A stretch of DNA of 64,000 nucleotides from positions 260 to 64,259 of the forward strand of contig JAVZGQ010000004.1 in the NCBI GenBank assembly GCA_038998585.1, written 5' to 3'. Source of the DNA: Candidatus Aenigmatarchaeota archaeon. Its GTDB lineage: Archaea > Aenigmatarchaeota > Aenigmatarchaeia > CG10238-14 > SCSR01. Position numbers and translations under genes: made by a program. A model generated the notes under the pieces. That model worked only from the letters and a program-made list of their open reading frames with translations. It had not been told where the DNA came from and made no database searches. Of the stretch, positions 4,679 to 63,904 are shown piece after piece; within the stretch, counting starts at the first letter, position 1; every line of letters begins with the position of its first letter.

Positions 4679-5272
4679 TCATTGTTTTATTTCTAAACTT
4701 ATCTTAACTTTGGTTTGAGGACTCCTCAATTTTTCAATTAAAGCATGTTTAATTTCATTTGCAGATTTATCTGATAGAATTGCAACAGTTTTGTTATCAA
4801 TGACAGAATCTTTCCTTATAACAATTTCTTTTTTACTTTTAAGTTTAAGGGCAGGTGAGCCATAGGCAATAAAAAATTCCTCTTCTCCTTCAACTTCAAT
4901 TTTTATTTCAACTCTTTTAGCACTTTTAATAGCAGCTTTAAATTCTTCACTCAAATCTTCACAAGCTTTATCACAATTAACAGCAATTGTAGCGTTGTCG
5001 ACATCCAAATCTTTAGTTATTCTTATCATAAAATTATTGGAGGCTTTGATTTCAGGGTGGCCATAACCAAAAATTTCTTCTTTTGTTGGTTTCAACTCCA
5101 TTAAGAGTTTCCAACCACTTTCTGTGGGTATGTAGGCACCACCAGCAGTATAATGAACCATTCCCTTGCTTTCTAAAGTTTCAAGAACATCTCTAATCAT
5201 ATCTGGTGTTATAGATGGTGATGGCTCTGGAGCAGTTTCAGGCGGTTGTTGTATTTTTCTTATTTCTTTCAT
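4679..5272 (-). CDS. DUF371 family protein with N-terminal winged-helix-like region
   Basis: 197 aa; GYGHPEIKASNNFMIRITKD...AVNCDKA resembles the archaeal DUF371 signature. Confidence 0.5.
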   Translation of the reverse strand: MKEIRKIQQPPETAPEPSPSITPDMIRDVLETLESKGMVHYTAGGAYIPTESGWKLLMELKPTKEEIFGYGHPEIKASNNFMIRITKDLDVDNATIAVNCDKACEDLSEEFKAAIKSAKRVEIKIEVEGEEEFFIAYGSPALKLKSKKEIVIRKDSVIDNKTVAILSDKSANEIKHALIEKLRSPQTKVKISLEIKQ

Positions 5273-6018
5273 TCTATCTTCCTTGCAAAAGTTATGAAAC
5301 CCGTGTGCATTATTCCTATCGTCTTAGGTCTTGTCGTCATCTCAGTTCGCCATTCCCGTACTATATTTTCTACAGTCTTAATATAAGAAAAGTTTAACTC
5401 CCTTATTTTTTTTGTCACAGCAATGACCTCTTCTATTGTTGGCGAGTAAACGACAAGCCAGCCACCAACTTTTAATGCTTTATAAATATGTTTAATAATC
5501 CTTTCAGGATTTTTAATATCTAATGTTACAAGATCAACATTTTTCTCAAAAATCCCCTTTCCAGCATCTTTATTTTTAATCTTGATGAAATTAGAAAGAC
5601 CAAAAATTTTTACATTTTTTCTAGCTATTTTTACCATTTTTTCGTCTTTTTCATAACTCACAACTTTACCTGGTTTTATATAACTTGCCAGAAAAATTGC
5701 TAAAAAACCAGAGCCAGTTCCCACATCAACTATAGAACTTCCTTGGGAGATTCCAGTATAAGCCAAAATCAAGGCAGCATCTTTCGGCATTATTATTTGT
5801 GGTCCTCTTTTAGCTTTCTTTTCTAAAAAATCGATCAAGTTTGGTTTAACTATTCTAAATTCTTTTTTGAGATGAGTTTTTATTTTATCACCAATTTTCT
5901 TCTTTAGAATTTTATTCAAATCAAAAACCCCATCTTTTGTTGAAAGCTTTCCCTTTCTAGCTTCTACCAAGTAAGAAGAATTTTTTGATAAAATTAAAAT
6001 CAATTCTCCCTCTTTCAA
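5269..6018 (-). CDS. trmI: tRNA (adenine-N1)-methyltransferase TrmI/Gcd14 family
   Basis: 249 aa; SAM-binding VDVGTGSGFLAIFLA, N-terminal beta domain, GCD14-like layout. Confidence 0.8.
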   Translation of the reverse strand: MKEGELILILSKNSSYLVEARKGKLSTKDGVFDLNKILKKKIGDKIKTHLKKEFRIVKPNLIDFLEKKAKRGPQIIMPKDAALILAYTGISQGSSIVDVGTGSGFLAIFLASYIKPGKVVSYEKDEKMVKIARKNVKIFGLSNFIKIKNKDAGKGIFEKNVDLVTLDIKNPERIIKHIYKALKVGGWLVVYSPTIEEVIAVTKKIRELNFSYIKTVENIVREWRTEMTTRPKTIGIMHTGFITFARKIE

Positions 6019-6090
6019 AATATCACCAATTAAATGATTGTAAATTTAAGCTTTAATCAATTATTATAAAATTAAATATTTTTACTTCAA

Positions 6091-6318
6091 TTACCATTTT
6101 TTTAACAAAATAAAAATTGTTAGCATAATTGCAAAAATAGTTATAGTTAAAATAAAAGCTCTTTTATCACTCCATACCCCAAATGGTATTGGTCCTATCA
6201 AACCAAAAAATCCCCACTCAGTTTTTAAATTTTTTGAACTTAAGACTGCTCCTAAGAAAATTAAAAGAAAACCGAAAAAAATAAGCAAAAATCCAGTTAA
6301 GATCAATTTTTCTTCCAT
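6091..6318 (-). CDS. small integral membrane protein (possibly DUF131/TIGR00304 family)
   Basis: 75 aa, three hydrophobic segments, GLIGPIPFG motif. Confidence 0.45.
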   Translation of the reverse strand: MEEKLILTGFLLIFFGFLLIFLGAVLSSKNLKTEWGFFGLIGPIPFGVWSDKRAFILTITIFAIMLTIFILLKKW

Positions 6319-6353
6319 CTATGTATATTAATCTTCATTGATAAATAAAAACT

Positions 6354-7424
6354 ATGCGTGCTTACTTAGTTACAACCTTGCTGGGAGTTTTTGGTGTTAG
6401 TGAAGATAATAAGATAATTTGTTTTGAGTTTTTCCCCAAAAATCCTGAAAAAATAGTAGAAAAGATAAGATTTTCTGAAAGAGAAATTATAGAAGAAGAG
6501 AAGAAAGTTCAAGAAGATTTGAAGAAAAGAGGATTTAAAGAAATATTATTTTCAGTTGAAAAACCAGGTGTCAATTATCAGAAAGGGAATAGAGCAGAAC
6601 AATTTATAAAAGAAAACCTACGAAATTTAGCTTTAGAGCACAAGTTTGTAAAAGATCAGGCAGAATTCAACCAACTTTTGACTAAAATTAACATAGAGTT
6701 GACAAAAGAAAAAATCAAAAAAACAGTAGAAAAAGATAGCTTTGTTATTCAAATCGTGAGGTTGATTGAAGATATAGACAAAACAACAAACATTTTGATT
6801 GAAAGACTGAGAGAATTTTATAGTTTACATTTTCCAGAAATGGATAGAATTGTACAAGATCACAAAAAATATGTTAAGATAGTTGAAGAGTATGGTTTAA
6901 GAGAAAAAATAGAAAATTCTGAGCTAAGAGAAATTGCTAAAAAAAGTATGGGAATTGACTTAAGAGAAGATGAAATAAGAACTATCCAATTAGTTGCAAG
7001 TGAAATACTAAATCTTTATAAACTTAAGGATGTTTTGTCAGAACAATTAGAAAAAATTTTGAAAGAGATTGCTCCAAATTTCACAGAGCTTGCAGGTACA
7101 ATGCTTTCAGCTAAGCTTATGGCTAAGGCCGGTGGTCTTGAAAAATTGGCTAAAATGCCTTCAAGTGCGATTCAACTTATGGGAGCAGAAAAAAGTCTTT
7201 TTAGATTCTTACACGGCAAGGGGAGGTCACCAAGATTTGGAATTATTTTTAGCCACCCTTTAGTTTCAAGTGCACCAGAAAAGTTGAAGGGTAAAATAGC
7301 AAGGATAGTTGCTTCTAAACTTTCAATTGCAGCAAAGCTTGATTTTTACTCAAAAGAATATGAGGGGGATAAATTGAAGAAAGAAATGGAAGAAAAAATC
7401 AAAAAAGTTTTATCTAAGTCTTAG
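6354..7424 (+). CDS. nop5: C/D box sRNP core protein Nop5 (Nop56/58)
   Basis: 356 aa; coiled-coil middle, NOP domain AGGLEKLAKMPSSAIQLMGAEKSLFRFL...PRFGIIFSHPLV; ends in TAG. Confidence 0.9.
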   Translation: MRAYLVTTLLGVFGVSEDNKIICFEFFPKNPEKIVEKIRFSEREIIEEEKKVQEDLKKRGFKEILFSVEKPGVNYQKGNRAEQFIKENLRNLALEHKFVKDQAEFNQLLTKINIELTKEKIKKTVEKDSFVIQIVRLIEDIDKTTNILIERLREFYSLHFPEMDRIVQDHKKYVKIVEEYGLREKIENSELREIAKKSMGIDLREDEIRTIQLVASEILNLYKLKDVLSEQLEKILKEIAPNFTELAGTMLSAKLMAKAGGLEKLAKMPSSAIQLMGAEKSLFRFLHGKGRSPRFGIIFSHPLVSSAPEKLKGKIARIVASKLSIAAKLDFYSKEYEGDKLKKEMEEKIKKVLSKS

Positions 7425-7625
7425 TTTCTTTTCAACCAAAAAATAGATAAAAACCCCAATTACACCAAGAATCAAACAAATTGCCAGCCAGACTAACTTG
7501 TATTTTGTACCTTTTTTAGATTTTATAATATCTATCATAGCTGGTATAAAAGCTATTATACTCACAATACCATAGATTTGCAATACCACAAACCATAAAT
7601 TTATTAAATGTTCAAATCCAACCAT
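7410..7625 (-). CDS. small membrane protein with PLD-nuclease N-terminal (PLDc_N) type domain
   Basis: 71 aa, two TM helices, KYKLVWLAICLILGVIGVFIYFLV. Confidence 0.5.
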   Translation of the reverse strand: MVGFEHLINLWFVVLQIYGIVSIIAFIPAMIDIIKSKKGTKYKLVWLAICLILGVIGVFIYFLVEKKLRLR

Positions 7626-7666
7626 ACAAAATATATTTTCTTTCGAATTTAAAATAAGTGTTTAGT

Positions 7667-8338
7667 ATGAAAATAAAAAAACATGAAAAGTTTGATGGAG
7701 TTTTTTTGGTTAATGATAAGCTTGCTACTTTGAATCTTTTGTTTGGTGAAAAAACATATGGAGAAGAATTAGTAAGAGCTGGTGGAAAAGAATATAGAAT
7801 ATGGGATTTCTGGAGAAGTAAGCCCGCAGCTGCTATAAAAAAAGGAATAAAAGAATTTCCAATTAAAAAAAGTACAAAAATTCTTTATCTTGGGATAGCA
7901 AGTGGTACTACTGCTAGTCATTTTAGTGATATCATTGGTAGGGATGGTATAATTTATGGTGTGGAAATTTCAAAAAGAGTGTTAAGAGAATTAATCCCGC
8001 ATGCTGAAAAAAGGGGTAATATAGTTCCAATTCTTGCAGATGCGAGAAAGCCCGAAAGTTATCATAACATTATTTTTGAAAAAGTAAGTGTTGTGTATTG
8101 TGATGTTGCAAGTCCTGATGAACTAGAACTTTTTATAAGGAATTGTTTGAAGTTTCTTGAGCCAAGAGGATATGGTATGGTTGCCGTTAAGTCTAGGAGC
8201 ATAGATGTTCTAAAGAAACCAGATGAAATCTATAGAGAAGCAAGAAAAAAACTAGAAGAAAATTTTGAAATATTGGATTTTGTTAAGTTAGATCCTTATG
8301 ACAAAGACCACGGTTTTTTTGTTGTTAGGTTTAAGTAA
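7667..8338 (+). CDS. flpA: fibrillarin-like rRNA/tRNA 2'-O-methyltransferase
   Basis: YRIWDFWRSKPAAAI, SAM motif ILYLGIASGTTASHFSDI; ATG at 7667 preferred over GTG at 7658. Confidence 0.9.
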   Translation: MKIKKHEKFDGVFLVNDKLATLNLLFGEKTYGEELVRAGGKEYRIWDFWRSKPAAAIKKGIKEFPIKKSTKILYLGIASGTTASHFSDIIGRDGIIYGVEISKRVLRELIPHAEKRGNIVPILADARKPESYHNIIFEKVSVVYCDVASPDELELFIRNCLKFLEPRGYGMVAVKSRSIDVLKKPDEIYREARKKLEENFEILDFVKLDPYDKDHGFFVVRFK

Positions 8339-8835
8339 GATTCAAATTTTTTAAAAATTTCTTTCAAAACTTCAAGATCATCCAAACAATGACTAACTAT
8401 TTCTTCTTTTGCTTTCTTGTCGCCATGAACAGCTTTTAGATAAAGTCTAAGCACATCTCTCCCTTCAATTTCTCTATTTTTTGGGATCCTAAGAGATTTT
8501 GATATTTCTTGCAAACTATTCTTGCTAAATGAAAGATTATTTCTGCAAAATTCCCAAAGATCTAAAGAAGGAATTTCTAACAATCTACTCAAGTCTTCAC
8601 CATTGATTATAGCTCTTGTAATTATGAATGGTATATCAAAACAAGAGCCATACCAAGTTATCACTAATTCACAATCTTCAAGCTCTTTTTTAAGCCACTT
8701 TAAAGCTTCTTTTTCATCTTCTAAACTTTCAACAAATTTGACCTCTTTTTTATTTTCTTTAATTATGCCTATAGCAACAATTTGCCCTATATCGGCTTTG
8801 GTGTTTGTGGTTTCTATATCTAAAAACATCTTCAC
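8296..8835 (-). CDS. RNase H-like fold 3'-5' exonuclease family protein
   Basis: 179 aa; FLDIETT (ExoI-like) and WYGSCFDIPF (ExoII-like) motifs. Confidence 0.55.
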   Translation of the reverse strand: MKMFLDIETTNTKADIGQIVAIGIIKENKKEVKFVESLEDEKEALKWLKKELEDCELVITWYGSCFDIPFIITRAIINGEDLSRLLEIPSLDLWEFCRNNLSFSKNSLQEISKSLRIPKNREIEGRDVLRLYLKAVHGDKKAKEEIVSHCLDDLEVLKEIFKKFESYLNLTTKKPWSLS

Positions 8836-8886
8836 TCAAACCACCTAAATTTAAATTGTTATTAAAAATAAAAAAGAAGGAAAATG

Positions 8887-9000
8887 TCAGACAACTTTCA
8901 AGAACCCCCAAACCTTTCCTCCAGAAACTACATTTGTTCTAATCTTTCTTATTCCCCTGTCCATTAAAAATGATATTTGGATTCTCGCCACCTCTTCCAT
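8887..9000 (-). CDS. possible 37-aa small protein
   Basis: ATG preceded by AGGTGA Shine-Dalgarno at 5-nt spacing; no recognisable family; below the ORF-track length cut-off. Confidence 0.25.
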   Translation of the reverse strand: MEEVARIQISFLMDRGIRKIRTNVVSGGKVWGFLKVV

Positions 9001-9008
9001 TTTTTCAC

Positions 9009-9194
9009 CTAATTATGAAATCCAAGTCTATGGTAAAGGTCTAGATTAAACTCGTGTAAATTTTTCTGCATTTCAACTTCTCTTCCTATCTTTTCAAGAA
9101 AACTCCCTAAACAATCTCTACAAAAAACTCTTTTCTCACCAAATCCGTCAATAAATTTTATCGTTCTTTCTGACCTACATCTCAAGCATCTCAT
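9009..9194 (-). CDS. zinc-ribbon small protein
   Basis: 61 aa; CxxC (CLRC) and CxxC (CRDC) pairs. Confidence 0.4.
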   Translation of the reverse strand: MRCLRCRSERTIKFIDGFGEKRVFCRDCLGSFLEKIGREVEMQKNLHEFNLDLYHRLGFHN

Positions 9195-9313
9195 TCTCTC
9201 TTTTTAATATCTTGATAAGCATGGTATAGATGTCTTTTCTAACAACATTTCCGAAATTTCCGATGAATTCTATAAATAGAGAAATTAAACCTATTTTTTA
9301 TATAAAATAAGGC

Positions 9314-10351
9314 TTAGGATACATTTTCAATATTTAAAAGGTTTTTTAATTCTTCTAAAATTTTTGTTTTGACTTCTTTTTCTTTTTTTCTATCTATTAT
9401 TCCTGCTCCAGCAGCTTCATGCCCACCACCGATCCCAAGCTTTCTAAATAATTCACCAATATCAATTTTTTTATCACCACTCCTTCCGTGAATTTTAACA
9501 CCTTTCTCAACTTCCTCAAAAATAAAAATTATCTTTTCTGGGTTTTTTGTCGATAATTTCGTGATAATTGCTGAACATATTCCCTTGTACTTTGGTTTGA
9601 TTTTTGATATTAAAATTTCACCATAGATTTCAAGATTTTTCTTATACTCCTTTTTACATCTCAAAAATTCGTAATTGAATTTTTTTGAGGCAGTGATAAT
9701 TTCTCGATTTTTTAATAATTCTTTCAAATTTTTAAGACCAACAAGAATTTCCAAAGTTTTTTCCGAACCTAAGACTGAGATAGAGTTGTTTAAAAAAATA
9801 GCGGCCCTGCCAAAATTGTTTTTCCAAATGTTTTTTTTGTTTTTAATCTTTACCAAGTCTTTACAATCTTCAATCCCGAAATCTCCAACTGTTCCAACAA
9901 TCGCAACCCACTTTTTTTCTTTAACTAAATCTGAGAACATTTTATAAATAACATAACTTGTCGGCTGATAGATTTTTGGATTTTCTAGCCTAGGATTTAT
10001 TAAAACCACTTTTTTAGAATTTAAATCTTTTCCAGGGTGATGATCAATTATCAACATATTTTTTCTTAAGCTTAGCAAATGTTTTTCAATCAAGTCTGTT
10101 GGTACATCGACTGTAATTATTTTTTTAAATCTCTTAAGCTCAGTTTTTAACTTTTCTATTTTAGTGAATCCTGTTTCTATACACTTCACTTTCTTTTTCA
10201 TTTTTTTAAGAACAAAAAGAGAAAGTGTGGCTGAACACAGGCCATCTGCATCTGCATCATAGACCAAAACAACCTTTTCCCCCCCTTTAATATTTTCAAT
10301 AAACTTTCTTCCTTTCTCAAGCAAATGTTCAAACTTTTTCAGCACATTCAC
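9314..10351 (-). CDS. DHH/DHHA1 phosphoesterase (RecJ/GAN-like)
   Basis: 345 aa; DADADGLCSA, IIDHHPG and GGGHEAAGAG motifs. Confidence 0.8.
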   Translation of the reverse strand: MNVLKKFEHLLEKGRKFIENIKGGEKVVLVYDADADGLCSATLSLFVLKKMKKKVKCIETGFTKIEKLKTELKRFKKIITVDVPTDLIEKHLLSLRKNMLIIDHHPGKDLNSKKVVLINPRLENPKIYQPTSYVIYKMFSDLVKEKKWVAIVGTVGDFGIEDCKDLVKIKNKKNIWKNNFGRAAIFLNNSISVLGSEKTLEILVGLKNLKELLKNREIITASKKFNYEFLRCKKEYKKNLEIYGEILISKIKPKYKGICSAIITKLSTKNPEKIIFIFEEVEKGVKIHGRSGDKKIDIGELFRKLGIGGGHEAAGAGIIDRKKEKEVKTKILEELKNLLNIENVS

Positions 10352-10955
10352 CTTTAAGTTTTTTTAAGGTTTCCTCATCAAGGATAAGCAACTCCAGTGG
10401 TTGTTCTCTTGGTGTAGAAAGATAAAACTCAATCATGGATGCAAGAGTATCTGCATAATGTAAGATTAAAGCTTCAAAATTTCTTGGAGGTGTTGGCCCA
10501 CTTTCACCAAAATGCGAAGCTACGATATGAATAACATCTTCAGGAAACCCCCTGTAATAAAGTTCGGCCACAGCCAGCATAGAATGATCGAGTAAAATTC
10601 CAGTATGTCTAACTTCTTTATTTTCAATCTTCCATTCAAAAACTTTCATTATATCATGTAATAGAGCTCCAGCTATCAAGTAATCGGTATTTATTGGTAT
10701 ACCATAATTTTTTTCCAAGCTTTCTGCAATTTTAATACAAAGCTCAGTTACAGATAAAATATGTTTCAACAAGTCAGCTCTTTCTACAGTTCCACGACCA
10801 GCTACTGTGAAGGGAGTTCTTACGTTTTCTATTTCTTCTTTCGGGTATTTTTTAAATTCTTCGTGAGAGAGTGCGGGGTCTTTTAAAAATTCAACTACTT
10901 TCTTTCTCAATTTTTCATCTTTTATTTTTTGCGCAATCTCAATCAAACTTTTCAT
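10329..10955 (-). CDS. HD-domain phosphohydrolase
   Basis: 208 aa; LLHDIMK and further His/Asp residues of the HD superfamily; 23-nt overlap with the downstream DHH gene. Confidence 0.65.
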   Translation of the reverse strand: MKSLIEIAQKIKDEKLRKKVVEFLKDPALSHEEFKKYPKEEIENVRTPFTVAGRGTVERADLLKHILSVTELCIKIAESLEKNYGIPINTDYLIAGALLHDIMKVFEWKIENKEVRHTGILLDHSMLAVAELYYRGFPEDVIHIVASHFGESGPTPPRNFEALILHYADTLASMIEFYLSTPREQPLELLILDEETLKKLKGECAEKV

Positions 10956-10966
10956 TAAATCCCTTT

Positions 10967-11248
10967 TTAACCAAACAACGAACTTAAACCAGCTGCTGCT
11001 TCTTCAGCCTTTTTCCCCGCATCTTCTTCTTTCTCTTTCTTCTCTTCTGTAGTTGTAGGAGCAGATACAGCTATTGCAGCTTGTTGAATAGCCTCATCTA
11101 TATTCACACCCTCCAAACTAGCAACCAAGGCTTTAACCTTTGCCTCATCTACAGTCACACCTGCAGCTTCTAAGACCTTTTTTACGTTCTCTTCTGTGAT
11201 TGGACGTTTTGCTTGATGAAGCAGCAATGCCGAATATACATATTCCAT
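10967..11248 (-). CDS. rpl12: 50S ribosomal stalk protein P1 (L12e)
   Basis: 93 aa; [12 protein letters not shown]-terminus and acidic tail ending GLSSLFG. Confidence 0.9.
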
Positions 11249-11252
11249 TAAC

Positions 11253-12011
11253 TTACACCCCCATTTTTTCTATAGCCTTTGCATTATAAAAGGCTTTAAT
11301 CAATAAAAGTTTGATTGTTTCTTTTGTTGGATAAGATGCGTTTACGGAAAGATTTATAGCATATTGGTGTGCAACACTTAACTTATTTGGAAATGTTTCA
11401 ACAAGCTCCAAAATTTCTTTTGGATAAATCTTACCACCTTCATAAAAACACATTACATCTAAAGATATAGAGATTGGTTTAATCTCAAGTTTTCTCAAAG
11501 CATTTGCGACATCTTTTGATATAACATTTCCCTTCTTTACAAGAGTGACAGTTTTTTTTATCGCTATCTTGCCTTCTTCTACTCCGGCCGGAATTCCAGC
11601 TTTAGTCAACTCACTTATAACAGGACCTGCTAAAAGGCTTGTAGGTCCAGCAGGAACAATTATATCGTTTGGGGCAACATCAAATTCTTTTGCAAAAGTC
11701 TCGAATTTAGAAGAAGTAAGCTTGTAATAAGATTTGAAAGCATCTTGCTTCATGAAAACTACTGCTGGTTGATTTGGGACAAATTTTTCCAATTCACTAA
11801 TGTTTTCCTTTTTGGTTTCTCTTATTGCAAAAAGAAGAGTGCTCTTTTTAGTAGCTTTTATAATTCCGACATCTCTTATAACTTTCCTTATTTCTTGTAA
11901 TTCTTTACTAGGAAATTTATAAAGATTAATTATGCCAATAACAGGATATTCTTCTATCATTTTTTTTAATTCTTCCACTTTTTTTATCTTCTCTTCTTTA
12001 ACCATTTTCAC
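11253..12011 (-). CDS. rpl10: 50S ribosomal stalk protein P0 (L10), short form lacking the acidic C-terminal tail
   Basis: 252 aa; L10 N-domain, position between L1 and P1 genes; ends ...AIEKMGV with no P-protein tail. Confidence 0.85.
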
Positions 12012-12625
12012 ACCTCAATTTTAACAGGTTTACTCATGGTTAGTTTAAGCAATACCATTTTTATATTTTGAATACCCCTAGGTAATTTTGCTTGAATGGC
12101 TTTCAAAACACTCTCCACATTTTCAGCAATTTCTTCGTCTTTCATATTTTCTTTACCAACAGCGCATTGAATCACAGGAGCATCTTTTATCCTTATCCTC
12201 ACAACTTTTTTATAGTCTTCAACTATTTTGTTTGCATTACCACTGATTATTTTAGGTAGTTTTCCTTTAGGCCCCATGTATTGTCCAAAAACCTTTCCAA
12301 CTAAAACCATCATTTTTGGTTCAGCTAAGAAAAAGTCAACATCCCTTACCAATTTTTTGGCTAGTCTTTTATTTTTAGAATATTTTTCTATGTCACTGCT
12401 TGTTAAAACTTCACAATCAAGTTCTTTTAAAGTATCTGAAAAAACAACAATCTTAGCTTCTTCACCCCTCCCATTTGGCAATATAACGTCTTCGGTGAAT
12501 TTATTTTCGGGTTTTTTTATATCAAATTCTTTTAAGGAGACTATGAGATCAAAAGTTTGTGGGAAATTTCTTTTTTTAGAATTTTTCCTCAATTCCTCAA
12601 TAGCTTTCAAAATTTTTTCTCTCAT
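12008..12625 (-). CDS. rpl1: 50S ribosomal protein L1
   Basis: 205 aa; conserved L1 pattern and operon position. Confidence 0.9.
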   Translation of the reverse strand: MREKILKAIEELRKNSKKRNFPQTFDLIVSLKEFDIKKPENKFTEDVILPNGRGEEAKIVVFSDTLKELDCEVLTSSDIEKYSKNKRLAKKLVRDVDFFLAEPKMMVLVGKVFGQYMGPKGKLPKIISGNANKIVEDYKKVVRIRIKDAPVIQCAVGKENMKDEEIAENVESVLKAIQAKLPRGIQNIKMVLLKLTMSKPVKIEV

Positions 12626-12674
12626 TTAATACCCTCCTGCCTAAGCAGTGAAGCGGGTTATTTCTACTTTATCT

Positions 12675-13190
12675 TTAAGATTTAAAAAGATTATCATATT
12701 TGCCTTCTTCAACTTCTTTTAAAACTTCTTTTGCCTTTTTACCCTCAACAGTCACAGGCATGCTTACAACTGTACCAAGAACAACTTTGACTGCAGTTTT
12801 AAGATCCTTCACCTGCATATTTTCGATTTTCATTTTTGCAATTTTAACACATTGTTCCATACTCAAATTGCCTATAGGACCAGTTTCTTTTTTTTCACTC
12901 TCTGCTGGAGTAGTAGACTCTTTTTTCCCTTCCTTTACTATGCCCAATTCCTTCTTTATCAGACTTGAGACAGGTGGAAGACCCACTTCAATGCTATATT
13001 CCTTAGTTTTTTTATCGATAATCAATTTAACAGGAACTTGTATTCCGCTATATTCTTTTGTTTTTTCATTGATTTGTTTGAAAACTTCCCCTATGTTTAT
13101 TTTATAAGAGCTTAATTTTGGAGCAGTGGTTGGTCCAGGCGAGGCCTTGCCGCCTTCTACTAATAATTTAATAACTTCTTTTTCTGACAT
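12675..13190 (-). CDS. rpl11: 50S ribosomal protein L11
   Basis: 171 aa; GGKASPGPTTAPKL N-domain motif and operon position. Confidence 0.9.
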   Translation of the reverse strand: MSEKEVIKLLVEGGKASPGPTTAPKLSSYKINIGEVFKQINEKTKEYSGIQVPVKLIIDKKTKEYSIEVGLPPVSSLIKKELGIVKEGKKESTTPAESEKKETGPIGNLSMEQCVKIAKMKIENMQVKDLKTAVKVVLGTVVSMPVTVEGKKAKEVLKEVEEGKYDNLFKS

Positions 13191-20494: not shown

Positions 20495-20592
20495 TGGACC
20501 GGCCGGGATTTGAACCCGGAGCCTCTTCATAGCAGTTGAACTCATGCCTTTTCCATAATTAAGGAAGCGATCTACCATTGATCTACCGGCCC
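20495..20592 (-). tRNA. tRNA-Ala with 26 nt of intervening sequence (12-nt insertion 20549..20560 plus about 14 nt more within 20530..20548)
   Basis: Acceptor GGGCCGG/CCGGTCC has the G3:U70 Ala identity pair; D arm GATC-AATGGTA-GATC; T arm CCGGG-TTCAAAT-CCCGG. Anticodon GGC (favoured) or UGC depending on the second splice. Confidence 0.7.
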
Positions 20593-41958: not shown

Positions 41959-42225
41959 TCACTTTATCACTAACACGCCCACTGGATATGGCTTGCCGCA
42001 AAGCACGCCAAGCTCTTTGCTACCCTTGCTAAATATTTCCATTTTAATACCAGCAATTTTTGTATTATATTCAATCTCTTTTTTCATTTTTTCTGGTAGG
42101 TTGTTAGCAATAACGACAAGTTTTGCTTTATTAAGTTTTATGAATTTCTTACTTTGTTTGTACCCCAAGATTACATTCCCAGCTTTATTCGCATCAAGAA
42201 TTTCTTCTTCCAAACTCATTTTCAC
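41959..42225 (-). CDS. rpl30e: 50S ribosomal protein L30e
   Basis: 88 aa; [27 protein letters not shown]. Confidence 0.9.
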
Positions 42226-43349
42226 TTTTCCTCCTCAAATTTTGCAATTAGTTCAATCATTCCTGTTCCAGATGGAATTACTTGGCCTATCATTACATTC
42301 TCAAAAATTCCCTTGAATTCGTCTACTTCATTCCTTATAGATGCTCTTACCAAATGTTTGACTGTTTCTTCAAAGGCGGCTCTTGCAAGGATGGATGTTT
42401 GGGATCCAGCAACACCATATCTACCTATAGATTGAATTCTTCCTGTAGATGTCATGATATCGCCAACAAGAGTGATGTGTCTTATGTCGACATTTAGACC
42501 TTGTTCTTGTAAAGTTTTAATAGACTCCTTAATTATAACATTTCTGGCAGCTTCTATTCCCAAAACCTTGAAAGTTTCGTGAATGTCATTTGTGATGGTT
42601 CTTGTACCATCGACTTCTTCCATTTTTAAAACTTCTTCAAGATTTGAACCGAGTGTGTTTATCAACCAGTCTTCCCCCTCTCTTCTAACAATCGCATTTT
42701 TAATATCTTTTATACCCTCAAAATGAAGGTTAAGTATTTTTTCTCTCAATGCCTGAAGTTCTTTGATGTCAGATTCTTTTTTTGGAGACACAACAATAGT
42801 TTTTGTCCTTTCCTTTACTCGAACTTCTGGGAAACTTTCTTTAATCAGTTTTGCTATTTTACCCAATTTCCTCAAATCTTCCACATCTATTTCAATACTA
42901 TTTTCATTCAGGTTTATAGAAACACCCTTCACTATGTTTGAAATTCTTTTCTCAACTATACTTTCGGCTAAATCTCTTGCACTTTCCATGTTGTTGAATT
43001 CTCTTTTAAGATAAATCTCCATCACAGGAGTTTCCAATTCTTTTTTAGCATCAAAAATTTCTACAAGTCTAGGCAAACCGTAGGTGACCTTAATTCCCGC
43101 AGAACCAGCAAAGTGATAAGTACGCATTGTCATTTGAGTTGCAGGTTCTGAAATGCTTTGAGCAGCAATGATTCCAACAGCCTCTCCAGGTTCAAACATC
43201 AATTTAAGGAAATTTTTTTTAACAGTCTCCAAAAGCTTCTCTTTCTTCTCTTGACTTAATTTTAATTCTTTCGCTGTTTTTTCCACTTCATCTATTAAAA
43301 TTTTTGGAAGTTCAACTTCAGATAAATTGTTCTGCAATTTTTCTGACAT
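42222..43349 (-). CDS. rpoA2: DNA-directed RNA polymerase subunit A'' (Rpo1C)
   Basis: 375 aa; [28 protein letters not shown] trigger-loop region; overlaps the A' stop by 32 nt. Confidence 0.95.
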
Positions 43350-46300
43350 TTATCCCACCCCTTTCAATTTTAGATGGGTCCAGACCATCTTCCCCAGCTA
43401 AAAACTGTATTATTCTGTTGGAACTATCTCTTACAGTCCCATCGTACTCAACTTTAAGATCTTGAAGTGCTCCAACGAGTCTTCTTTCCATGTAACCAGA
43501 GTGTCTAGTCTTAAGAGATTTATCCATCAAAGATTCTCTACTGTTCATTGCGTCAAAGAAAAACTGGAATGGTGTGAGACCACTTTTAAACCCTCTGTCA
43601 ACAAACCCTCTTGCTTGTAAGCTCATATCTCCAATTTTGAAGTGTGGGAATGTTCTTTCATGATAGCCTTTTTCCACTCTCTCGCCCATTATAGTCTCTT
43701 GACCTATGAGAGCGGTTGTTTGGACAAAATTCACGATACTACCTCTTGCTCCACTTCTTGCCATGTTAATTATGGAAGTTTCTTTCACACATTTCATTAG
43801 TACTTCTTCCACTTCATTTAAGGCTTTACTCAACCTTTTCTTTATCAATGTTTCCAGACTTTCTTTTGGAGTCCTACCTATCAAAACTTTAAGTTCTCCT
43901 TTTTCAAAATCCTTGATCATATCATCTACATCTTTCTTAACATTTTTAAGTACAATTTCTATTTCATCCCTTGCCTCTTTTGGCAAGTCTAGCTCTGAAA
44001 TACTAACAGAAAATCCGTATCTTGTTATATATTCAAGAGAAAGTTTTATCATCTTGAACAAAAAGTTGCTAGTGAACTCTGCCCCGTATTCTCTCTCCAT
44101 CTTATCAATTATTTTTCCATCTTCGTCACCCAAGGCTGCTTTATCGATTACCCCAGAAATAAGTTTACCGTCTTTAATTATCACCATATCACCTGACTTT
44201 GCCTTATGTTGGATTGAAAAATCTTTAGGCAAGAATAAATTAAATATTTCTTTTCCTGTCATAGTTTGTTTGTCAGGTATTTCTATCTCCGGGTCAACCT
44301 TTCTTATTAGGTCTACAAAATCTCTCCTCTCAAATTTTTTATCGTCTTTAGTCAATAGATAAAGGCCGGAAATACAATCTTTTGTGGCACCAATAATAGG
44401 ACCAGAGAATCTAGGACTTCTTATATGTTTGTGAACATCCATTAAACACAAAGCTTCTACTTGGGCCTCTTCTGTTTGCGGTAAGTGTAAGTTCATTTCA
44501 TCTCCATCAAAGTCAGCATTGTATGGTGGGCAGACAGCCGTGTTAAGCCTGAATGTCTTGAATGGCATCACTTTAACCCTATGTGCCATCATACTCATCC
44601 TGTGAAGACTAGGCTGTCTGTTGAAGAGTGAAATATCACCATCTATCACATGTCTTTCAACTATGTAGCCTGGTGCAAGTTCTTTACAAATTTCCTCTTT
44701 ATTCGACTCTGTGATTTTTTTCCTTCTTCCGTCTGGTCTTATTATGTAATTTGCACCGGGCCAGACTTCACTACCATTCATAACAAGTTTTTTCATTTCT
44801 TCCAGATTCTTTTCATTCACTTTAATAGGGACTGTTAATTCTTTAGCTACGATTTCTGGCACACCAACTTCGTCCAAATCGATCAAAGGATCAGGGCTTA
44901 TAACAGTTCTAGCCGAGAAGTTCACTCTTTTTCCAGCGAGATTTCCTCTAAATCTTCCTTCTTTTGTCTTCAATCTTTGAGATAGAGTTTTCAAAATCCT
45001 ACCCGATCTATGTCTTGCTGGAGGCACGCCAGAAAGCTCATTATCAAAATAAGTGCTAATATGATATTGAAGAAGTTCCCAGAGATCTTCGATGATGAAA
45101 TCTGGTGCACCAAGATCTATGTTTTCTTTTAACCTTTCATTTATCCTCACAATATCGACAAGCTTGTGTGTTAAATCATCTTCCGACCTTTCTCCAGTTT
45201 CTAGAGTTATCGATGGTCTTACAGTTACAGGCGGTATTGGCAATACTGTAAGGACGAGCCACTCGGGTCTCGTGTTTTTAAACCCAATAATGCTCAAGTC
45301 TTCTGTTGATATTTTTTCTAATCTTTCCCTAATTTTTATTGGATTGATTATTTCATTGTCTTCAATAAAAGTATAGGGTTTAATGAGCTTAATTTTTCCT
45401 TGTGTTGAACTACAGTATGGACATTTTTTCTTTACAATCTTGGCAAGTTCCTTGAAAGGAATTTTTTCACTTTTGATTCTTTTTAAATCTTTTTCCTCAA
45501 TTAATATTCTACCACATTTTCTACAAAACATCTTCAAAAGCGTGAGTATAAACTTTACATAATGAACATGAATTATTGGTCTTGTTAATTCAAGTAAGCC
45601 AAAATGTCCCTGGCATTCTCCAACACTACCACCACAAGTCCTGCATCTTACACCAGGATCAACGACTCCTAGCCTGGGATCCATAAGTCCACATTCGATC
45701 GGATATCCTTCTTGGTCATACAGCTCTGTTTTTGTAATTTTTGCTACTGCCATTTTTTTTATCAATTCTGGATTGATTAGACTAAACTCCATTTTCTTGA
45801 CCGCCATTTCTTCACTCCCTAAAACAATTTTCGGATAAATTAACATGCTCTTTAGCTCATCTAACATTAGCTTGAAAGCATAACTCATCTCTACATCAAA
45901 GATCTTGCTTTCACCACATATAGGACAATACTTCCTGTTCTTTACCTTATCATATATAGCGACTAAACCACATTCAGAGCAGATAGGAACAACAGTTTTA
46001 TCAGAATCGAATCTCTCTTTCAAAACAAGAGCTGCGCCATGTGCTATCAAAACATCTTTTTCCATTTCACCTAATCTTAAACCACCTTCCTTACTTCTTC
46101 CCTCTGTTGGTTGCCTTGTTAACAGGGTTACAGGTCCTCTAGATCTTGCGTGGATCTTGTTCGAGACAAGGTGATCTAGCTTTTGATAGAAACACGGTCC
46201 AATAAAAATTTCGGCCTCAAACTTTTTTCCAGTTCTCCCATCAATCATAACTTCTTTACCATCGTCTCTAAAACCATAAGACTTTAACATTTTTCTTATT

Positions 46301-47604
46301 TCTTCTTCTGATGTTGGGTTAAAAATCGGGGAGTAAATAGTTTTACCAGAGATGGCTGCTACTTTTGCTGCAATTTGTTCGAGCAATTGACCAACTGTCA
46401 TTCTTGATGGAATTCCATGCGGGTTGAATATTATATCAGGGACAATCCCGCTTTCGGTGAAAGGCATATCCTCTTGCGGAAGAACAATTCCTATAACACC
46501 TTTTTGCCCATGTCTACTTGAAAACTTGTCTCCTATCTCAGGAATTTTCAAGCTCCTCATCCTAACTTTAACAAGTTTTGTTCCATCTATCGTTTCTGTT
46601 ATAAAAACTTTGTCGACAATGCCACTATCACCATGTCTTATTCTTACAGAAGTTTCCCTTATGTTTTCTATCCCTGTTATAAACTGGTCCATAGTTCCTA
46701 AGAACCTCAGAGGAGAAATCCTTCCAACCAAAATTTCATCAGACTCTATCTTAGTTTCTTGATTAACTATACCATCTTCCGGCAAATGTTTGTAAGCATC
46801 TTCACCAGCATAGCCTCTAACCCCTGGCTCAGGGATCCCTATTACATCTTCTTGCCCTCCCATGTATCTTTTCTGTTCAGCCTCATATGTTCTGAACATA
46901 TAAGACCAAAAAAGCCCCCTTTGAATTGAGCTTGAGTTGATTATTATTGCATCATCCATGTTAAAGCCCTGGAAGCATGCAATAGCGACTATTACATTTG
47001 TTCCATTTGGGTGTTTTTCATATCCTGCAATTTTGTGTGCATGGGTTTGGACAAGAGGAACTTGAGGATAAATCAATACATTGGACTTGGTGTCAACTCT
47101 GTTTAAATAGTTTGTGGCGAAAAGGCCTATTGATTGACCAACCATTTTTGCCCCATAGTTTACTCTATCTCCTCTGTTAAATTCAGCATAGGGGATGAAG
47201 GACGCCAAAAAACCAAGAATTGTGGCCGGATTAATCTCAAGGTGAGTATGCTCAGGAGTTAAATCCCCTTCCTTTAATGCAATATAACAATTTTCCTCTT
47301 CCTCAGCATCGAGATATTCAATTACACCTTCCGTTATTAAATCTTCCCATTTCATGGCACCTATTTTGAGTTTTTGTATGTGCTCTTCTGTTAGTTTAGG
47401 CTTGCCATTTTCAACAATTATAAGAGGTCTTCTCACCCTTCCACTGTCCGTCAAGATTTTGACTTCATCTAAATGTTTATGATAAGCGACATTAACCTGA
47501 TAAGGAATTAAACCCTTTCTTCTTCTATCTCTTATTTCGTTTACAAATTTTTCAGGCTCTTTTGTCGTCCCGACAAACTTACCATCAATAAATACATCAG
47601 CCAT
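43318..47604 (-). CDS. rpoB1-rpoA1: fused DNA-directed RNA polymerase subunits B' (C-terminal half of B, aa 1-599) and A' (aa 600-1428) in one frame
   Basis: B' part: [15 protein letters not shown], Zn ribbon CSECG..CPICG, ending [21 protein letters not shown]. It runs directly into [35 protein letters not shown] (A'). No stop between them. Confidence 0.85.
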
Positions 47605-49088
47605 TAAACCACCATTCTTTGAATCGAAGAGTAGAAATTCTTCTTTTCATTTTCATTTAGGCCACTTGTGATTTCTGCCATTATTGCAAGATATTTTCTT
47701 AGACCTATGGTTGCTCCTTCTGGTGTTTCGCTTGTACACAATTTACCAAAATGTGTTGGATGTAGCTCTCTTGCTCCAAAATGTTCTTGTGTTGAAGTGA
47801 GTGGGGAAAGTACATTCCTCATGTGGGAAATGGTTTTAACGAAGCTACCTCTTTCCAATCTCTGACTAACTCCCGTTCTTCCACCAATCCAAGTTCCTAT
47901 TGCAAGAGCAGAAACAATCTGGTTTGTTAACACATTTGATTCGACTATTGCTTGTAACGGTGGAATCCTGCCTCTTTTTGCAAGCTTTTGATAGTTGTAG
48001 ACTATCCTTGTTATCAATCCCCATTTTCCAAGAAGTATCGATCTTAACAAAATCTCTAAAAGATCACCCGAAAGTTTTATTCTCTTGTTTGAATAGTGAT
48101 CAAGATCGTCTTCCTCAATTTTTCCAAGATGAAGTTTTATCAGTTTTCCAATCGCCTTGCAAAGGAACAAGGCCTTGTCAATTCTTGCTTCCTGAGTTTG
48201 CCCCAGGTGTGGAAGGAAATATTTATCTATCAGTTTTGTCGCTCTCTCAACTCTACCCTCTTTTTGTGCTATTCTTATATGTTTTCCCAATTCATCTAAG
48301 GCTTCTTGTTTTGAGGTTATTTCTGTTTCGTAAAGATTTGTATAAAATTCCTTCTGAACTTCTTCGTCAGATGAAATAACATTTACAATTTCTTTGTCAG
48401 AGTCTAGCCCCAGAGCTTTTATCAGTATGACAACAGGAAGCTTTTCAACATTTGCAAAACTTATTGTGATTATACCGCTTGTTTTTCTCTCAAGCAAGTG
48501 TCTTTGTATATAACCATCTTTTTCAGAATGTATTCTTGCTATTTCAGTCACACTTCCAGAATCGATCTTTTCTACGATAATTCTATTTTGTGCTATTTCT
48601 TCAACCAAAACAAGAATTCTTTCTGTACCGTTGATAATAAAATATCCACCCGGATCGTCAGGATCTTCCCCTATTTTTATGAGCTCTTCTCTGCTCATAG
48701 TTGAAAGAGGGCATATTTTTGATTTGAGCATCACAGGCATGTCTCCAAAATTTACCACAACAGTATTGCTTTCTATATTGTTAAGAACAGGTGTCATCTC
48801 AACATACATTGGAGCAGCATAAGTTAGGTTCCTTACTCTTGCTTCTTGGGGCGTTATTGGTCTTACAGACCCATCAGCCTCTTTCACACAAGGATCACCG
48901 ATCTTGAAGCTACCGAGCTTTATTTTGAATTCACCAAGTTCAGGAACTTCTGGTTTAATGACACCAATTTCTTTCAAAACTTTTGGTATTCTTCTTGTTA
49001 TGAAGTCATTGTAAGAGTCTATCTGGAATCTGACAAGACCCCTATCTTTTACAAAGGCATCTACAAGTGTTAAGAATTTTGTGTCCAT
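47604..49088 (-). CDS. rpoB2: DNA-directed RNA polymerase subunit B'' (N-terminal half of B)
   Basis: Start set to MDTKFLTLVDAF (ATG 49088, 5 nt after the rpoH stop); TAATG overlap with the B' start at 47604. Confidence 0.9.
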   Translation of the reverse strand: MDTKFLTLVDAFVKDRGLVRFQIDSYNDFITRRIPKVLKEIGVIKPEVPELGEFKIKLGSFKIGDPCVKEADGSVRPITPQEARVRNLTYAAPMYVEMTPVLNNIESNTVVVNFGDMPVMLKSKICPLSTMSREELIKIGEDPDDPGGYFIINGTERILVLVEEIAQNRIIVEKIDSGSVTEIARIHSEKDGYIQRHLLERKTSGIITISFANVEKLPVVILIKALGLDSDKEIVNVISSDEEVQKEFYTNLYETEITSKQEALDELGKHIRIAQKEGRVERATKLIDKYFLPHLGQTQEARIDKALFLCKAIGKLIKLHLGKIEEDDLDHYSNKRIKLSGDLLEILLRSILLGKWGLITRIVYNYQKLAKRGRIPPLQAIVESNVLTNQIVSALAIGTWIGGRTGVSQRLERGSFVKTISHMRNVLSPLTSTQEHFGARELHPTHFGKLCTSETPEGATIGLRKYLAIMAEITSGLNENEKKNFYSSIQRMVV

Positions 49089-49092
49089 GATA

Positions 49093-49332
49093 TCAAGCCC
49101 CAACCACAACTCTATAATATATAGTTTCACCTGCAGTTGGACTCTTCCTTATTATTTTAACAATATCCCCAACTTTGGGATTTTTGTCAGCTATGGCAGG
49201 GTCTGTTATTAATATCCTTGGGAATTGTTTTAAACTAGCCTTATATTTTTTCAATACTTCTGCCTTTTCTTCTTCACTTAAAATTATGTGTTTTGGTACA
49301 AGATGGTGTTTATCTACTTCTATTTTTTTCAA
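49093..49332 (-). CDS. rpoH: DNA-directed RNA polymerase subunit H (Rpo5)
   Basis: 79 aa from TTG 49332 (GGGGTGAGG just upstream): KKIEVDKHHLVPKHIILSEEEKAEVLKKY... The longer track ORF (to 49467) runs into the 5S rRNA gene; GTG 49356 is an alternative start. Confidence 0.8.
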   Translation of the reverse strand: MKKIEVDKHHLVPKHIILSEEEKAEVLKKYKASLKQFPRILITDPAIADKNPKVGDIVKIIRKSPTAGETIYYRVVVGA

Positions 49333-49414
49333 TTCCTCACCCCTATCCAATAGCACAATAAAGAAGGTTGGTTTATATAAGCTTTTCTTTTCAAATCGAC
49401 ACCGGTACGATAAA

Positions 49415-49531
49415 TGTTGGCAACGTCCTGGAATTCCCCTGCTTTCGCAGAGTACATCCCAGATCACTGGGAGGCTTAATTACCGTGTTCGGATGGGAAC
49501 GGATGTTTCCCTCCCGCTTTGGTCGCCAACA
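49415..49531 (-). rRNA. rrf: 5S ribosomal RNA
   Basis: Minus strand TGTTGGCGACC...GTTCCCATCCGAACACGGTAATTAAGCC...CTGGGATGTACT...GTTGCCAACA; terminal helix TGTTGGC/GCCAACA; ends +/- 3 nt. Confidence 0.85.
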
Positions 49532-49699: not shown

Positions 49700-49772
49700 C
49701 GCCTCGGACGGGATTCGAACCCGTGTCTCAAGCGTGACAGGCTTGCATCCTAAACCACTAGACGACCGAGGC
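49700..49772 (-). tRNA. tRNA-Asp (anticodon GUC), uninterrupted
   Basis: GCCTCGG..CAAGC-CTGTCAC-GCTTG..ACGGG-TTCGAAT-CCCGT-CCGAGGC-G; 73 nt. Confidence 0.9.
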
Positions 49773-58062: not shown

Positions 58063-58138
58063 AGCATAAAGTTATTTAAATCAAGAATTAATTTTAGACA
58101 TTATCAAAAGATTGAACGTATCGACCAATTAGTATATT

Positions 58139-58230
58139 AGCCCCGTGGTGTAGTGGTCAAGCACACAAGGCTCTGGTCATATGAGATTGGTGGTAACCTT
58201 GGGACGCCAGTTCGAATCTGGCCGGGGCTA
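58139..58230 (+). tRNA. tRNA-Gln (anticodon CUG) with a 19-nt intron at 37/38 (58177..58195)
   Basis: A1:U72 acceptor AGCCCCG/CGGGGCT, D arm as in archaeal tRNA-Gln, arm CAAGG-CTCTGG[19 nt]A-CCTTG, T arm GCCAG-TTCGAAT-CTGGC. Confidence 0.8.
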
Positions 58231-58413
58231 TAAATCTTAACAAACTTCTCTATGCTTGACGACTGTTTAAAGCTATAATAAAAAATTTAGGATGTTGAGT
58301 TCCTAGAATCAAAAATAAGTTTGGGATGGGAAAGTAATTATGAATATAAGAAAAATTAAACTCAAAGCTTTCATATTTTCAACAGCTTCTCAATTGTAAC
58401 TCAGACACATTTT

Positions 58414-63821: not shown

Positions 63822-63904
63822 TGGGTCTGGGCGGAGTTGAACCACCTTCTCGGCCTTGTTTGCCCTTGATTAAGGGCCGCGTCCTACCGTTAGACTACAG
63901 ACCC
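63822..63904 (-). tRNA. tRNA-Val (anticodon UAC) with a 12-nt insertion inside the anticodon (63860..63871, position 34/35)
   Basis: GGGTCTG..CGGCC-CTT[AATCAAGGGCAA]ACAA-GGCCG..GGTGG-TTCAACT-CCGCC-CAGACCC-A. Exon GCCC pairs with intron GGGC as a 4-bp helix between 3-nt bulges. Confidence 0.8.

Follow-up and report, generated by a model that had tools for sequence, protein, structure and literature searches.

In every archaeal and eukaryotic RNA polymerase (RNAP), the clamp includes portions of both large subunits: the C-terminal part of the second-largest and the N-terminal part of the largest. In this study, we analyzed a 64,000-nucleotide stretch of DNA from a Candidatus Aenigmatarchaeota archaeon (NCBI GenBank assembly GCA_038998585.1, contig JAVZGQ010000004.1, positions 260 to 64,259; hereafter the window), in which RNAP subunits B' (Rpo2C) and A' (Rpo1N) share one open reading frame (ORF). 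A first-pass annotation of the same stretch had proposed that either a B'-A' fusion polypeptide is made or A' is additionally initiated inside the frame.

Organization of the RNA polymerase locus

The fused rpoB'-rpoA' ORF lies on the minus strand and runs from the ATG at 47604 to the TGA at 43318-43320. It comprises 1428 codons plus the stop in a single frame (43318..47604), with the second-largest subunit N-terminal to the largest and no interruption between them. The calculated masses are 161.9 kDa for the fusion, 67.4 kDa for the B' portion and 94.5 kDa for the A' portion, close to the sizes of about 160, 68 and 95 kDa given in the first-pass annotation. The single frame without a stop at the junction, also reported there, agrees with both the ORF and its Pfam domains. 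The B' portion (aa 1-599; 45808..47604) matched PF04566, PF04567, PF00562 (E = 1e-131) and PF04560 over aa 4-594, which correspond to Rpb2 domains 4-7. The A' portion (aa 600-1428; 43321..45807) matched PF04997, PF00623, PF04983 and PF05000 (Rpb1 domains 1-4) within aa 601-1407; of PF04998 (Rpb1 domain 5), only the first 66 positions are present, the Pfam-defined A' part ending at aa 1407. The C-terminal zinc motif of B' (CxxC...CxxC) is present as CSECG...CPICG, and the A' portion carries the catalytic NADFDGD and the N-terminal zinc motif RCRTCGG...GHFG. The codons GGG AGT GAA GAA ATG GCG at 45819..45802 (minus strand) span the junction with zero in-frame stops; the letters of the surrounding region, within 45790..45830 of the same strand, are GGGAGTGAAGAAATG.

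The flanking ORFs, also on the minus strand, encode the other halves of the two subunits. The upstream ORF (47604..49130) contains Rpb2 domains 1-3 and is rpoB'' (Rpo2N), whose ATG is probably at 49088 (47604..49088); its TAA stop and the ATG of the fused gene overlap as TAATG (GTGGTTTAATGGCT), as described previously in the first-pass annotation. The downstream ORF, rpoA'' (Rpo1C; 42222..43349), contains the remainder of Rpb1 domain 5 and shares 32 nt with the end of the fused ORF. The order of the operon is the canonical archaeal one, rpoH-B''-B'A'-A''-L30e-NusA-S12-S7-EF2, and is identical in unfused relatives. The 32-nt A'/A'' overlap is kept in relatives as well (window, 43318-43349; locus L084, 5465-5496; locus L085, 5459-5490).

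The junction in a sister species and in unfused relatives

NCBI MEM5766413.1, a protein of a metagenome-assembled genome (MAG) labelled "Candidatus Aenigmatarchaeota archaeon", is identical in sequence to the fused protein. A second protein cluster, P0270 (two further accessions on two contigs), is 90% identical to the window protein and likewise 1428 aa long. At the sister locus L001, the junction reads GTA AGT GGG GAA GAA ATG and shares GAA GAA ATG with the window. At the DNA level, the genes of the window and L001 share 84% identity, which falls to 52% at 455 four-fold degenerate sites (31% expected at saturation). The fusion is an inherited state common to the window and its sister (L001/P0270), and the shared junction has therefore been kept open over about one substitution per synonymous site.

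The nearest unfused relatives have very closely spaced B' and A' genes. In L084, B' ends in ...TTG AGG GAG GAA TGA and the A' ATG overlaps the stop (ATGA). In L085 and L086, the junction reads ...AAG GAG GAG TAA A ATG, with a 1-nt spacer. In all three loci, B' and A' lie in different frames and a strong GGAGG lies inside the last B' codons. Compared with the nearest unfused junction, that of the window (TTA GGG AGT GAA GAA ATG) shows a net one-base shift by which the frames are merged and the stop is removed. An out-of-frame TGA at 45814..45812, within GAGTGAAGA, may be what is left of the ancestral B' stop. Too many differences separate the junction of the window from those of L084 and L085 for the exact series of mutations to be traced. 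Programmed frameshifting to the out-of-frame TGA was considered and set aside, as no canonical slippery heptamer lies upstream of it.

These junctions suggest the following course. In the ancestor, the B' stop would have abutted or overlapped the A' start (ATGA, or TAA-A-ATG), with the Shine-Dalgarno (SD) site of A' within the last B' codons. A small indel would then have united both frames and deleted the stop. Ribosomes starting at the B' ATG would read on into A' and yield one chain of 1428 aa (162 kDa), and the enzyme would assemble from B'', B'-A', A'' and the small subunits. The fusion event is young: among relatives only the sister species has it, and the ancestral start codon and SD site are still in place.

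Structural compatibility at the clamp

The best PDB sequence match of the junction was 3QQC chain A, which aligned without gaps across it (RPKLNLSEGGKVIGSIEF on the window side). In this alignment, the end of native Pyrococcus furiosus B falls at about window residue 599, and the start of Thermococcus A' would fall at about residue 595; the natural fusion therefore adds no linker. 3QQC is an engineered P. furiosus clamp (rClamp) of the composition B(1053-1115)-A'(3-318)-A'', with a short linker, which folded and bound Spt4/5 (Martinez-Rucobo et al., 2011; PMC3094117). As in the window, the C-terminal residues of B are covalently joined to the N-terminus of A' with a very short linker. Unlike the window protein, rClamp is artificial, has G/A/S linkers and an added A'' piece, and comprises only clamp fragments instead of a full-length catalytic subunit.

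An AlphaFold2 model of aa 400-900 was built from 63 sequences. It contains a strand at 589-595 (the end of B'), the loop GSEEMA (aa 596-601; 45802..45819) and a strand at 602-609 (the start of A'), with a predicted local distance difference test score of 81-85 through the junction. The best Foldseek match of the model was again 3qqc_A (template modelling score, 0.80; root-mean-square deviation, 2.9 Å; 368 columns), which matched it over more columns than any A'-only chain. The model thus indicates that the junction is structurally compatible with the RNAP clamp. The short loop GSEEMA would connect two neighbouring clamp strands, and the fusion would be tolerated because the chain ends of B' and A' already lie side by side in the clamp.

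Frequency and age of the fusion in Aenigmatarchaeota

Frequency was estimated with a query restricted to the A' portion (aa 600-1428). Among its best 120 clusters, all at least 70% identical, 18 were fused and 102 were stand-alone A' proteins of 823-849 aa. The N-termini of the stand-alone proteins (M[LIF]V[DE]KIEF...) align exactly with Met600 of the window (Met600-AVKKMEF), and the ATG at 45805..45807 is thus the ancestral start codon of A'. In a bootstrapped neighbour-joining tree of this set, the ingroup root was unfused and 9-12 independent fusions were counted. The window and P0270 formed a pair with 96% support, which was nested at 100% support with the unfused P0279 and P0280 (90% and 89% identical to the window); the next clusters, P0281 and P0282, were 84% identical. 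With 15% of the close clusters fused, an unfused root and about 10 gains, the fusion is not a character of the whole phylum. The survey of related junctions that the first-pass annotation had suggested thus finds a fusion that recurs many times: judged from these sequences, it is a recurrent but minority state, present in about 15% of close relatives in Aenigmatarchaeota, and across the phylum similar events number roughly 15 or more. The word-indexed protein search is biased against long proteins: with the A' part of the 1911-aa P0090 as query, it returned no 1911-aa protein, P0090 itself included, and thus missed proteins of about 2.3 times the query length. Like the bias of the junction-spanning genome scan described below, this distorts estimates of fusion frequency.

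Older fusions were also present. In about 104 fused clusters, the distance from the B-terminal YP motif to the LYD..GYP motif of A' was always 34-37 residues. Only 6 of them had a Met at the junction position of the window, so most fused lineages have no internal start to fall back on. A clade of 24 fused clusters, in which unsplit B is joined to A' (about 1911 aa), was monophyletic with 90% support, and its A' identities were as low as about 75%. Every one of the 15 clusters with at least 77% identity to P0090 over the A' part was fused, and there were additional fused clades of 6, 4 and 3 clusters. Together, these data indicate that B'-A' fusions are viable in the long term.

The first-pass annotation had also noted that the fusion occurs in a genome that has split B. 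B is indeed split here, but the split is unrelated to the fusion, because fusions occur with both split and unsplit B. The B''/B' split itself is labile in Aenigmatarchaeota: several clades with an unsplit B, which measures about 1090 aa by itself and 1911 aa in fusion with A', are interleaved with split-B clades. The clusters and loci concerned are P0063, P0084-P0117, L020, L023, L024, L036 and L040. The Nanoarchaeota-like outgroup is split.

Products and selective value of the fused gene

The favored, and probable, explanation of the locus is that rpoB' (Rpo2C) and rpoA' (Rpo1N) of an Aenigmatarchaeota genome have truly fused end to end. The fusion reading of the first-pass annotation is favored by the junction shared with a sister species, by the loss of the Met in many fused lineages and by the clamp-compatible junction. 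The full-length fusion protein would be the main product.

An additional output of free A' has to be weighed against this. SD strength was expressed as the duplex energy with the anti-SD sequence AUCACCUCCU. The relic SD-like GGGAGTGA (45812..45819), located 4-11 nt upstream of ATG 45807, scored -8.8 kcal/mol. Only 2% of the 255 internal in-frame ATGs in the window are preceded by a site as strong, and the site is stronger than 93% of the gene starts in the window; that the junction doubles as an SD-like site, as first proposed from the letters alone, is thereby borne out. An earlier exact-match SD count, by which the motif looked ordinary (29% of internal ATGs score equally), was superseded by the duplex-energy test. 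The A' SD sites of unfused relatives ranged from -7.2 to -10.3 kcal/mol, that of the sister L001 junction was -5.5 kcal/mol, and those of older fused lineages still carrying the Met were -0.1 to -4.0 kcal/mol.

Free A' could accordingly be initiated alongside the fusion from the retained SD and ATG (45819..45805) at a physiologically relevant level, in which case the locus would remain partly two cistrons. Met600 is the ancestral A' start, its SD site lies inside the range of the A' sites of unfused relatives, and the window and L001 both retain GAA GAA ATG despite about 48% change at four-fold sites. However, each B' chain already has its A', so free A' would be a surplus without a B' partner and would upset the subunit balance, which matters for archaeal RNAP assembly (PMC13556214). 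In addition, the SD site is weakened in L001 and lost in the older Met-bearing fusions, most fused lineages are without the Met itself, and translating ribosomes would occlude the site. The retained codons are also constrained anyway, because EE is the conserved C-terminus of B'. We consider such dual output possible but not probable.

Some points weigh against the fusion protein as the main product and against a neutral origin, and they are gathered here. The 162-kDa species is a prediction from the gene alone. The duplex energies were calculated with a generic archaeal anti-SD sequence, because the 16S rRNA of the organism lies outside the window. The internal SD and ATG are nearly intact, and some free A' may be made; selection for their retention is indistinguishable from the youth of the event. 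The trees are neighbour-joining trees of single-protein alignments with weak backbone support, and the event counts are approximate. Finally, fused lineages are outnumbered by unfused ones and most of them are shallow, a pattern that could reflect a mild cost instead of neutrality. Most likely, the fusion is nearly neutral or at most mildly advantageous (guaranteed 1:1 stoichiometry and pre-assembled clamp halves), and its fixation would have been largely neutral.

A stronger proposal is that the repeated fusions (at least 10 in the neighbourhood of the window) were selected in genome-reduced, probably host-dependent archaea, with young fusions mixing tethered and free A'. The tether between B' and A' would then enforce 1:1 stoichiometry and pre-assemble the clamp halves, in place of the support that balanced expression and chaperones give to assembly in larger archaea. 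Through the internal SD and ATG kept in young fusions such as this one, the proportions of tethered and free A' would be tunable, and Aenigmatarchaeota would offer a natural range of RNAP chain topologies that extends from four large chains to two. We regard this proposal as unlikely.

Alternative histories of the locus

A different history would place one fusion at the base of Aenigmatarchaeota, with the unfused members as secondary fissions. Queries that span the junction favor it. With the full-length protein query, all of the 120 best clusters were fused, some of about 1430 aa (B'-A') and some of about 1911 aa (unsplit B plus A'). In a junction-spanning scan of GTDB species genomes, about 25 of the 28 loci in the Aenigmatarchaeota clade were fused, and parsimony on this sample gave 1 ancient gain and 4 later fissions. 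These samples are biased, however, with fused and in-frame unfused genes ranking first. In all 45 outgroup loci from the scan, B' and A' lie in the same frame, so the scan favors single uninterrupted tblastn alignments and over-samples fused and in-frame unfused genes. The in-frame B' and A' of unfused relatives had been taken as proof of fused ancestry, an argument that was rejected because of this ranking bias; the unbiased nearest unfused relatives are out of frame. The A'-only query, by contrast, gave 85% unfused clusters, an unfused root and about 10 gains. The different frames and strong SDs of the nearest unfused relatives are also unlike the outcome of a nonsense mutation in a fused gene. 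A single ancient fusion is very improbable on these grounds. Junction-spanning queries strongly over-sample fused genes, and the true frequency came only from the one-sided query.

Fused and in-frame unfused genes are expected to rank alike within the biased scan, which allows one comparison between groups. Nanoarchaeota/Woesearchaeota-like loci were 0 fused versus 45 unfused, and Aenigmatarchaeota loci were about 27 versus 10. From this contrast, the tendency to fuse B' and A' looks specific to Aenigmatarchaeota.

An assembly or sequencing artefact, in which one base wrongly inserted or deleted in the A-rich junction would have merged two truly separate genes, is hardly credible. The window derives from a MAG and its nearest unfused relatives are only a small indel away from the fused state, but the diverged sister species (three accessions in different bins) has kept the same fused junction open amid differing surrounding sequence, which excludes an assembly artefact. 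In addition, there are fused clades comprising 3 to 24 diverged clusters, and an error at one specific site in 15% of clusters is implausible.

Comparison with known RNA polymerase fusions

Covalent beta-beta' fusions are an established feature of Helicobacter/Wolinella and of Wolbachia (PMC1557499 and PMC7483510, both citing Zakharova et al.). As in the window, one ORF links the second-largest subunit, at its C-terminus, with the N-terminus of the largest, and the junction sits at the clamp. Relatives have separate or overlapping genes in both cases, and both show an overlapping-to-fused series; the title of the 1999 study by Zakharova et al. reportedly contains the words "fused and overlapping". 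The bacterial fusion is fixed family-wide and joins two complete subunits (about 2900 aa), whereas that of the window joins the half-subunits B' and A', leaves B'' and A'' separate, and is a minority state that has arisen many times. Common descent is not indicated, as the domains of the window protein are of the archaeal/eukaryotic Rpb1/Rpb2 type and its nearest relatives are unfused. By domain type and phylogeny, the archaeal fusion is independent of the Helicobacter/Wolbachia lineage and would work like it; the analogy drawn in the first-pass annotation stands, as the same architecture in an independent event.

Rpb2::Rpb1 fusions are also known from Orf6 of the yeast killer plasmid pGKL2 and from Corynebacterium NCgl1702 (PMC2919709). 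They have the same order, second-largest then largest subunit. They are highly reduced or divergent polymerases of mobile elements, whereas the window encodes a full conventional cellular RNAP. Compared with the canonical archaeal B''/B' and A'/A'' genes, the window has the same operon, domain content and split points (B''|B' and A'|A''), but the B'|A' boundary is gone and there are three large chains (B'', B'-A' and A'') instead of four. To our knowledge, this set of chain boundaries occurs in no characterised RNAP.

Full-text literature searches on Aenigmatarchaeota/DPANN RNAP subunits yielded no description of an archaeal B-A' fusion, and only a re-fusion of A' and A'', in Pacearchaeota, is mentioned by Da Cunha (2017). 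As far as these searches show, no archaeon had been described in which the two largest RNAP subunits are naturally fused. The fusion is the archaeal/eukaryotic-type counterpart of the Helicobacter/Wolbachia case and the natural equivalent of the clamp engineered for crystallography. Since the fusion has arisen many times at different ages, a comparative series is available for the evolution of subunit boundaries, of translational coupling signals (SD and ATG) and of assembly constraints after fusion. Its value is that of a natural series for RNAP assembly and gene-boundary evolution, not of a new mechanism. Public annotation (NCBI, JGI) names the fused proteins simply "subunit A'" or "subunit B". 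The 1428-aa protein is called "subunit A'", which makes B' look absent, and such a gene can cause errors when completeness is estimated from marker genes or when concatenated phylogenies of DPANN archaea are built.

Other chain architectures and additional observations

Two longer fusions were encountered. P0238 (2214 aa) contains Rpb2 domains 1-7 and Rpb1 domains 1-5 (B+A'+A'') in one chain and is about 35% identical to the window protein. Its gene lies at 4732-11376 of locus L081 (Logan SRR24908257_10944), in a compact archaeal operon with overlapping genes (S19e ... RNAP, S12, S7, EF2, FEN1, GatB/GatA). The source appears to be a highly reduced and divergent archaeon whose RNAP core is a single chain. 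P0179 (1665 aa; complete gene, 8001-12998) joins the whole of Rpb2 to Rpb1 domains 1-2 only. Its loci L082 and L083 (ENA ERZ4200991 and ERZ27237608) are contigs of 59-79 kb, with YqaJ, DOT1, GIY-YIG, DnaJ and many ORFans as neighbours. These contigs resemble those of a giant virus, and P0179 appears to be a further independent fusion in the same order.

Inteins (PF14890) were present in B'' (987 aa; gene, 1-1207) of L084, the nearest unfused relative of the window, and in A' of other Aenigmatarchaeota (P0413 and P0432-P0434; 1303-1321 aa). The RNAP genes of the window itself carry no inteins.

Directly upstream of rpoH, the window contains a 5S rRNA gene (49415-49530, minus strand) and a tRNA-Asp gene (49700-49772, minus strand). 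The mechanical rpoH ORF (49093-49467, minus strand) overlaps the 5S gene and lacks an ATG downstream of that gene, so the start of RpoH is probably a non-ATG codon around 49340-49360. Three further tRNAs of 83-98 nt were found by Rfam at 20495-20592 (minus), 58138-58231 (plus) and 63822-63904 (minus). ARAGORN misses them or gives odd anticodons, and they are probably intron-containing archaeal tRNAs.

Many taxa appear to be mislabelled in public MAGs, as in the record titles of L015, L021, L027, L029 and others. Nanoarchaeota-like RNAP loci are titled "uncultured Methanosarcinales", one locus is titled "uncultured bacterium", and the A' protein P0293, 76% identical to that of the window, is labelled Heimdallarchaeota.

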